This document shows, piece by piece, positions 23,109-26,478 of a DNA stretch of 30,855 nucleotides. Both the position numbers and the translations under genes were made by a program. How positions within the stretch are numbered: position 1 is the stretch's first letter; each line of letters begins with the position of its first letter. The notes below the pieces were generated by a model. That model was not told the origin of the DNA and did no database searches. It worked only from the letters and a program-made list of their open reading frames with translations. Location of the stretch: the IMG/VR virus record IMGVR_UViG_2874956758_000002, positions 1 through 30,855 of that record, one strand, 5' to 3'. Origin of the DNA: a virus (Duplodnaviria > Heunggongvirae > Uroviricota > Caudoviricetes).

Positions 23109-26100
23109 ATGGGTAAAGGCAGCAGTAAGGGGCATACCCCGCGCGAAGCGAAGGACAACCTGAAGTCCACGCAGCTGCTGAGTGTGATCGATGCCATCAG
23201 CGAAGGGCCGGTTGAAGGTCCGGTGGATGGATTAAAAAGCGTGCTGCTGAACAGTACGCCGGTGCTGGACAGTGAGGGGAATACCAATATATCCGGCGTC
23301 ACGGTGGTGTTCCGGGCCGGTGAGCAGGAGCAGACACCGCCGGAGGGATTTGAATCCTCCGGCTCCGAGACGGTGCTCGGTACAGAAGTGAAATATGACA
23401 CGCCGATCACCCGGACCATCACGTCGGCAAACATTGACCGTCTGCGTTTTACTTTCGGCGTGCAGGCACTGGTGGAAACCACCTCAAAGGGGGACAGGAA
23501 TCCATCGGAAGTCCGCCTGCTGGTTCAGATACAACGTAACGGTGGCTGGGTGACGGAAAAAGACATCACCATTAAGGGTAAAACCACTTCACAGTATCTG
23601 GCCTCGGTTGTGGTGGATAACCTGCCGCCGCGCCCGTTTAATATCCGGATGCGCAGGATGACGCCGGACAGCACCACAGACCAGCTGCAGAACAAAACGC
23701 TCTGGTCGTCATACACCGAAATCATCGATGTGAAACAGTGCTACCCGAACACGGCACTGGTCGGCGTACAGGTGGACTCGGAGCAGTTCGGCAGCCAGCA
23801 GGTGCCGTCGAACTATAACCCGCAGACGCGGCAATACAGCGGTATCTGGGACGGAACGTTTAAACCGGCATACAGCAACAACATGGCCTGGTGTCTGTGG
23901 GATATGCTGACCCATCCGCGCTACGGCATGGGGAAACGTCTTGGTGCGGCGGATGTGGATAAATGGGCGCTGTATGTCATCGGCCAGTACTGCGACCAGT
24001 CAGTGCCGGACGGCTTTGGCGGCACGGAGCCGCGCATCACCTGTAATGCGTACCTGACCACACAGCGCAAGGCGTGGGATGTGCTCAGTGATTTCTGCTC
24101 GGCGATGCGCTGTATGCCGGTATGGAACGGGCAGACGCTGACGTTCGTGCAGGACCGACCATCAGATAAGGTGTGGACCTATAACCGCAGTAATGTGGTG
24201 ATGCCGGATAATGGCGCGCCGTTCCGCTACAGCTTCAGCGCCCTGAAGGACCGCCATAATGCCGTTGAGGTGAACTGGATTGACCCGAACAACGGCTGGG
24301 AGACGGCGACAGAGCTTGTGGAGGATACGCAGGCCATTGCCCGTTACGGTCGTAACGTCACGAAGATGGATGCTTTTGGCTGTACCAGCCGGGGGCAGGC
24401 ACACCGCGCCGGGCTGTGGCTGATTAAAACAGAACTGCTGGAAACGCAGACCGTGGACTTCTGCGTGGGCGCAGAAGGGCTTCGCCATGTGCCGGGCGAT
24501 GTCATTGAAATCTGTGATGATGACTATGCCGGTATCAGCACCGGCGGGCGCGTGCTGGCGGTAAACAGCCAGACCCGGACGCTGACGCTCGACCGTGAAA
24601 TCACGCTGCCATCCTCCGGTACCACGCTGATAAGCCTGGTTGACGGAAGTGGCAATCCGATCAGCGTGGAGGTTCAGTCCGTCACCGACGGCGTGAAGGT
24701 GAAAGTGAACCGTGTTCCTGACGGTGTTGCTGAATACAGCGTGTGGGGGCTGAAGCTGCCGACGCTGCGCCAGCGCCTGTTCCGCTGCGTGAGTATCCGT
24801 GAGAACGACGACGGCACGTATGCCATCACCGCCGTGCAGCATGTACCGGAGAAAGAAGCCATCGTGGATAACGGGGCGCACTTTGACGGCGACCAGAGCG
24901 GCACGGTGAATGGTGTCACGCCGCCAGCGGTGCAGCACCTGACTGCCGAAGTCACCGCAGACAGCGGAGAATATCAGGTGCTGGCGCGCTGGGACACGCC
25001 GAAGGTGGTGAAGGGGGTGAGCTTTATGCTTCGCCTGACCGTGGCAGCGGACGACGGCAGTGAGCGGCTGGTCAGCACGGCCCGGACGACGGAAACCACA
25101 TACCGCTTCACGCAACTGGCGCTGGGACGGTACACGCTGACAGTCCGGGCGGTAAATGCGTGGGGACAGCAGGGCGATCCGGCGTCGGTATCGTTCAGGA
25201 TTGCCGCACCGGTAGCACCGTCGCGGATTGAGCTGACGCCGGGCTATTTTCAGATAACTGCCACGCCGCATCTTGCGGTTTATGATCCGACGGTACAGTT
25301 TGAGTTCTGGTTCTCGGAAACGCGGATTACCGATATCAGGCAGGTTGAAACCACAGCCCGCTACCTTGGCGCGGGGCTGTACTGGATAGCCGCCAGTATC
25401 AATATCAAACCGGGCCATGATTATTACTTTTATATCCGCAGTGTGAACACCGTTGGCAAATCGGCATTCGTGGAGGCCGTCGGTCGGGCGAGCGATGATG
25501 CGGAAGGTTACCTGGATTTTTTCAAAGGCAAGATAACCGAATCCCATCTCGGTAAAGAGCTGCTGGAAAAAGTTGATCTGACGGAGGATAACGCCAGCAG
25601 ACTGGATGAGTTTTCGAAAGAGTGGAAGGACGCTAACGATAAATGGAATGCCATGTGGGGCGTTAAAATTGAGCAGACCAAAGACGGCAAACATTATGTC
25701 GCGGGTATTGGCCTCAGCATGGAGGACACGGAGGAAGGCAAGCTGAGCCAGTTTCTGATTGCCGCTAACCGTATCGCGTTTATTGACCCGGCAAACGGGA
25801 ATGAAACGCCGATGTTTGTGGCGCAGGGCAACCAGATATTCATGAACGACGTGTTCCTGAAGCGCCTGACAGCCCCCACCATTACCAGCGGTGGCAGTCC
25901 TCCGGTATTTTCCCTGACATCAGACGGAAAGCTGACCGCTAAAAATGCGGATATCAGTGGCAGTGTGAATGCGAACTCAGGAACGCTCAACAATGTCACG
26001 ATTAACCAGAACTGTACGATTAAGGGCATGCTGGAGGCGCCCCAGGTCAGAGGGGATTTCGTTAAAGCTGTATCAAAAGCCTTCCCGAAAAAAGTCGGTA

Positions 26101-26478
26101 CGTGGGGTAACGGAAACACCAAACGGTACGGTTACAGTCACCATCAGCGATGATCATAACTTTGACCGCCAGATTATTATTCCGCCCATTATTTTTAACG
26201 GTATAGCGTATGACGATCCGGGGAGCGGAAATAACCCGGGAGGCACGCGATACACGGGTTATGGTTTTGAAGTTCGCAAAAACGGCGTATTAATCGCATC
26301 CAGAGAAACTAAAGGGGCCATTCCCGGTAGTTACAGTGCAGTTATTGATATGCTTAGTGGTGGTAGCGTCACTCTGGAGTTTAAGATTTTCCAGAAAGGC
26401 AATCAGGGGGCAGGCAATATCACCGACTGTACGGTGATTGTGACCAAAAAAGCGGCTTCCGGCATCAGTATTCGTTGA
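23109..26478 (+). pseudogene. J: lambda-like tail tip/host specificity protein J with a -1 frame break near the 3' end (or sequencing error)
   Basis: 1014-aa ORF 23109..26153 matches gpJ; the J-like C-terminal region continues in another frame (ORF 25969..26478, ...[15 protein letters not shown]...). The break is at the G4 run 26104..26107; one extra G would give a continuous ~1120-aa J. Confidence 0.8.

Follow-up and report, generated by a model that had tools for sequence, protein, structure and literature searches.

A 2-bp deletion separates the receptor-binding domain from tail tip gene J in a degraded lambda-like prophage of Shigella dysenteriae

The J locus and its stranded receptor-binding domain

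The window analyzed here is a 30,855-nucleotide stretch of DNA that carries part of a lambda-like prophage. On its plus strand, positions 23109 to 26153 hold a truncated J open reading frame (ORF) of 1014 amino acids, as defined from the ORF list, translation, Pfam matches, and alignment to intact 1137-amino-acid J proteins. Residues 1 to 1001 are authentic gpJ, and residues 86 to 959 contain the Pfam series FNIII-A_GpJ, Phage-tail_3, Ig_J, Ig_J_second, and Phage_Tail_Tip, at E values between 1e-33 and 1e-43. After KKVGTWGN, the ORF runs through 13 out-of-frame codons (residues 1002 to 1014) and reaches an early TGA stop at 26151 to 26153. The in-frame C-terminal Ig_GpJ_C domain of a complete protein of about 1130 amino acids is missing, and the ORF falls short of the 1132 to 1137 amino acids of intact J.

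This domain is instead found in the +1 frame relative to J, at 26110 to 26478 on the plus strand, where 122 codons and a stop (26476 to 26478) encode a sequence ending in ...GISIR. The stranded sequence matches Pfam Ig_GpJ_C with an E value of 4.5e-21 and corresponds to lambda gpJ residues 1014 to 1131 in PDB structures 8IYK, 8XCK, and 8XCJ. A prior sequence-only reading of the window had proposed that a frameshift costs J its C-terminal receptor-binding region of about 120 amino acids and that a J-like continuation reaches 26478 in another frame. Translation and Pfam agreed on both counts, with about 122 residues lost. However, that reading described the frame break as −1, while the sequence beyond the break is in the +1 frame, and it placed the stop 12 codons on, while 14 codons follow WG before the stop.

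Phage 434 J (OL657226, 1137 amino acids) is the same gene as the window J, and in both the neighboring genes follow the order K-I-J-lom-stf. The two are identical at 951 of 970 positions in the N-terminal part and, once the dinucleotide described below is restored, at 147 of 153 positions in the receptor-binding region. As the latter is identical to lambda at only 55 of 142 positions, the lost domain was assigned to the phage 434 type. Lambda gpJ (NP_040600, 1132 amino acids; 8IYK, 8XCK, and 8XCJ) belongs to the same family and has the same domain order, and the frameshift falls at the equivalent of lambda residue 1011 to 1012, approximately, just before the Ig-like receptor-binding domain (PMC11101478). 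J of phage 434 directs binding to OmpC, whereas lambda J binds LamB, and the lambda Ig-like domain inserts four loops into its receptor and passes an opening signal up the fibre (PMC11101478). Judged by its sequence, the domain lost in the window is of the OmpC-binding type.

The position of J within the tail module is also that of gpJ, as the window order L'-K-I-J-lom-stf-tfa shares K-I-J-lom-stf-tfa with lambda and 434. The original J stop is succeeded, at 26501 to 26527 on the plus strand, by a terminator-like hairpin (GGCGTCA-GGAA-TGACGCC, then a T run); in phage 434, a terminator is annotated at the equivalent position. Beyond it, positions 26549 to 30855 contain the intact ORFs lom (199 amino acids, Ail/Lom), stf (1034 amino acids), and tfa (at least 193 amino acids), and these sequences are identical across sister assemblies. 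The window Stf protein is the sole member of its own 90% cluster in the protein collection. The 90%-identity cluster of J also takes in two 1024-amino-acid proteins, P0006 and P0013, but these are unrelated tape-measure proteins without resemblance to J and were set aside as an artefact of database clustering.

Insertion elements and the state of the prophage

Tail gene L is split, and each of its parts abuts an IS66-family element. Copy B (18693 to 21127, plus strand) adjoins the 3' part, and copy A, inverted relative to copy B (1160 to 3600, minus strand), adjoins the 5' part (3601 to 3704, minus strand). An 8-bp target duplication, GGAGAACG, is present at 21128 to 21135 beside copy B and matches the reverse complement of 3601 to 3608 beside copy A. 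When 3601 to 3704 of the minus strand was joined to 21136 to 21733 of the plus strand, minus one target duplication, an intact lambda-like L protein was obtained. The shared duplication and the rejoinable L thus show that one IS66 element inserted into L and that an inversion with a second inverted copy followed. This second copy, beyond cmoB, recombined with the copy in L and flipped the intervening segment, which measures about 15 kb and also carries int, yecE, yecN, cmoA, and cmoB. The genes E-FI-FII-Z-U-V-G/T-H-M-L5' now lie on the minus strand at 3601 to 11135, and int-yecE-yecN-cmoA-cmoB separates them from L3'-K-I-J-lom-stf-tfa, which lie on the plus strand. The same IS66 arrangement is seen in sister assembly GCA_031665835.1, and short sister contigs start inside L beside the IS66 site. 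The two IS66 copies differ by a 6-nucleotide indel (2671 to 2676), giving transposases of 512 and 510 amino acids; in GCA_031665835.1, the corresponding copy encodes 510 amino acids.

The capsid gene E (a 403-amino-acid ORF for which gene callers use a 345-amino-acid start) is directly adjoined by an SSB gene (9924 to 11628 for the pair, minus strand), and a nest of IS remnants comes next. No terminase, portal, or protease gene was present beside E within the window, and the decoration gene is also missing after E, so that the head module is cut short. Positions 11635 to 13509, beside the prophage integrase, comprise two 353-nucleotide inverted arms, each with an HTH_Tnp_1 (IS3-type orfA-like) ORF. 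Between the arms lies an IS30-family transposase gene (12024 to 13175; HTH_38 and rve), so that one IS sits within IS remnants or is bracketed by them.

The element thus bears several inactivating lesions besides that in J: the IS66 insertion in L with its inversion, the shortened head module, and, in this assembly, the Z frameshift described below. From this gene content, we consider the prophage to be already dead, with neither tails nor virions predicted to be made. As such an element could build neither, the J frameshift would carry no further cost. The frameshift and the IS66 insertion and inversion are common to all sisters, and the sister comparison therefore gives no order of events.

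A dinucleotide deletion in J

The window J was aligned to the intact 1137-amino-acid J genes of E. coli JP538 and RM14721. The frameshift maps to a 2-bp deletion junction at 26109 to 26112 on the plus strand, where the window reads GGTAACGG and intact J reads GGTAACACGG. One unit of an (AC)2 repeat is missing, such that AACACGG of intact J genes has become AACGG; the exact breakpoint of the AC loss cannot be placed within AAC|G. In codons, the intact ACG TGG GGT AAC ACG GAA (TWGNTE) is replaced by ACG TGG GGT AAC GGA A. The J ORF is therefore broken by a defined lesion that intact orthologues lack, and this lesion lies within the interval of 26095 to 26115 to which the sequence-only reading had assigned it.

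The cause named by that reading, a G missing from the G4 run (TGGGGT, 26104 to 26107, plus strand), did not survive translation. Because the C-terminal part sits in the +1 frame, repair requires the loss of one base or the gain of two. Adding one G to the run gives TWG followed immediately by TAA, removing one G gives W-VTETPNG, and putting AC back gives WGNTETPNG, with the frame open to 26478 as in the intact 1137-amino-acid J. Moreover, the G4 run is unchanged: it is common to the window J, phage 434 J, and the J genes of E. coli prophages and Stx phage 2851, and these close homologues have a normally terminating J, an observation that the reading itself had named as counting against it. Its suggested parallel with a lambda "WGG-TVTGTV" region could not be found, as lambda J reads AFPRQRES--SVDWPSGTRTVTV at the aligned position.

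The sequence around the junction is otherwise highly conserved. Apart from the 2 bp, O157:H7 prophages and phage 2851 match the window base for base over 141 nucleotides around the site, and no more than one additional base separates it from phage 434 or from other Stx and lambdoid phages. Matches to phages and prophages at this site cover 142 to 143 bases against 140 to 141 query bases, at 97.9 to 98.6% identity, and the phage collection holds intact versions only. A 53-mer with AC restored and G4 unchanged was present at ≥99% identity in about 1,096 E. coli records. The 51-mer spanning the junction of the window J gave 0 matches in 20,395 records from 5,426 complete E. coli genomes; with fewer than 28 bases flanking the deletion on each side, this query lets megablast seed only on deletion-bearing sequence. 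The deletion was likewise not found in GTDB species representatives or in metagenome contigs.

Three deletions in all distinguish the window J from intact genes such as those of 434 and phage 2851: 39 nucleotides at 23797/23798, 2 nucleotides at 26109 to 26112, and 3 nucleotides at about 26356. The first and last are in frame, and the 2-bp loss is the frameshift. The 39-nucleotide deletion removes SRNYHLRGRILQV between two 7-bp direct repeats, leaving one GCAGGTG copy at 23798 to 23804 (plus strand) in the alignments; it is private to this assembly and absent in the five sisters described below. The stranded domain carries, at 26354 to 26364 on the plus strand, the 3-nucleotide loss in a GTG repeat (one Gly codon) together with a C-to-T change (Pro to Leu), and both are found in all sisters. 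All three deletions sit at short direct repeats, namely, (AC)2 reduced to (AC)1, the GTG repeat minus one unit, and the GCAGGTG pair, and from this repeat context they most likely arose by replication slippage. There are also 42 window-specific substitutions (15 nonsynonymous), but these mostly reflect mosaic ancestry and are uninformative on relaxed selection. The sister assemblies are identical, which makes an estimate of dN/dS impossible.

Inheritance of the deletion and explanations for it

The exact truncated J protein is on record only in Shigella dysenteriae GCA_002950055.1 (CP026831.1), the source of the window. Sister data sets were gathered by look-up of the neighboring Lom protein, and the same AACGG was present in five further data sets: GCA_031665835.1, GCA_053979195.1, and the Logan assemblies of SRR36469256, SRR364092, and SRR364093. 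Over the covered parts of 21101 to 30855 (up to 9.7 kb), these are 100% identical to the window, except for the 39-nucleotide deletion, which is found in the window only. The J deletion is thus identical in six data sets of one lineage and is therefore inherited rather than an assembly error. Together, these independent assemblies indicate that the deletion is real and represents genuine decay, although the sisters could be re-sequencings of closely related stocks of a single strain, in which case "inherited in the lineage" would shrink to "true in this strain."

The possibility that the true genome has an intact J and that the frameshift is a consensus error gains some weight from Z, in which the same assembly carries a private homopolymer change that is absent from the sisters, such that this assembly may carry consensus indels. 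Z is split into two ORFs on the minus strand (8865 to 9110 and 8533 to 8874) by a change at 8877 to 8881, where the window has C5 and E. coli homologues have C6 (G6 to G5 on the coding strand). Sisters for this region were found by look-up of the H protein; the 256-amino-acid V ORF gave no match as a query, probably since gene callers use another start. An intact 192-amino-acid Z with G6 is encoded by sister GCA_031665835.1 and by the Logan assembly of ERR5982241, the latter otherwise identical to the window over 7 kb. The Z change is thus both a homopolymer change and private to CP026831.1, and either an error of assembly or a mutation confined to this genome could account for it. Within the public collection, 193 blocks contain the 81-amino-acid Z fragment, many of them from assemblies with numerous split genes, which makes the Z run a hot spot for either consensus error or slippage.

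The sequence-only reading had placed the J and Z lesions in one class of error and raised systematic homopolymer error as the cause. The Z lesion is private and lies in a homopolymer, whereas the J lesion is shared and is a dinucleotide deletion; the two therefore belong to separate classes and were judged separately. With the J lesion identical in five other data sets, three of which are assemblies from separate SRA runs, and with no homopolymer changed, we regard sequencing or assembly error in J as very unlikely. Comparison of sister assemblies was what told the two kinds of lesion apart, one real, inherited, and dinucleotide, the other private, homopolymer, and possibly a consensus error. 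The methodological value of the case is that a frameshift beside a homopolymer need not be a homopolymer error, and the one-base repair that had been proposed fails once it is translated.

Less probable still is that J is a recoded or split gene, whether through +1 ribosomal frameshifting, polymerase slippage at the nearby A6, or a receptor-binding domain acting in trans. The +1 frame is open upstream of the junction, from 25969 to 26109 on the plus strand, such that a rare shift anywhere in 25969 to 26112 would give a near-normal J, and a G-rich, Shine-Dalgarno-like GGGG lies just upstream. However, no known +1 shift motif is present at 26100 to 26115, where no stop or starved codon follows a slippery codon, and tRNA-Asn is predicted to be unable to re-pair from AAC to ACG. 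Nor is the arrangement conserved, as would be the case for a programmed +1 frameshift with a recognizable shift site: none of the 5,426 E. coli genomes has it, and the homologues keep a single frame. An A6 tract is shorter than known transcriptional slippage tracts, which counts against polymerase slippage.

Separate translation of the C-terminal ORF, which the sequence-only reading had raised alongside ribosomal slippage, fares no better. Its only possible starts, ATG 25969 and ATG 25993, are both far upstream and would add 39 to 47 nonsense residues, and neither a good Shine-Dalgarno sequence nor a plus-strand promoter-like site was found before either of them. Assembly of a tail would in any case be impossible for this prophage.

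We hold it equally improbable that selection favored losing the receptor-binding domain, for example, so that a domesticated tail-like product avoids the host's own OmpC: lom, stf, and tfa downstream are intact and identical in all sisters, which shows that some prophage genes are preserved, but identity at the nucleotide level means preservation without a signal of selection, no tail-like product is expected with L split and the operon scrambled, and the stranded domain has been damaged further by the codon deletion and the Pro-to-Leu change. Readings in which low-level +1 recoding across 25969 to 26112 supplies some full-length J, or in which truncated J is kept for a role beneficial to the host beside lom, stf, and tfa, are likewise given very little credence.

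Overall, we conclude that J is very probably a genuine pseudogene, produced by loss of AC in a degraded lambda-like prophage of the Shigella dysenteriae lineage. The reproducibility of the lesion in five further assemblies, the defined 2-bp deletion relative to intact orthologues, and the other inactivating lesions in the element all agree with this conclusion. One AC was lost from the short repeat AACACGG, most likely by slippage during replication, shifting the frame after Asn1001 and ending the protein 13 nonsense codons later. The predicted J product would lack the C-terminal Ig-like receptor-binding domain. By analogy with lambda gpJ, this domain must be linked to the trimeric central fibre to trigger infection; with the domain detached from the fibre, a tail carrying truncated J could therefore not be expected to recognize a host. 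The IS66 element cut L, and through inversion between the IS66 copies, L3'-K-I-J-lom-stf-tfa became separated from the other tail genes of the operon. The J frameshift would then be one of several neutral lesions that accumulated after viral selection on the prophage had ceased.

A related case comes from laboratory lambda PaPa, whose side tail fibre gene, stf, is reported by Hendrix and Duda (1992) to be frameshifted by a small deletion. There, as in the window J, a small frameshift removes the distal, host-recognizing part of a lambdoid tail-fibre gene. Lambda PaPa remains viable, as J still gives adsorption; the window lesion, in contrast, strikes the essential J and does so in a nonviable prophage. 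IS elements and pseudogenes abound in Shigella genomes. Cryptic or defective lambdoid prophages likewise show IS insertions, IS-mediated inversion, deletions, and late-gene frameshifts, and the window prophage differs from this typical decay in nothing of kind. The J lesion is thus ordinary prophage decay, and its biological weight is small, being one more pseudogene in a dead Shigella prophage.
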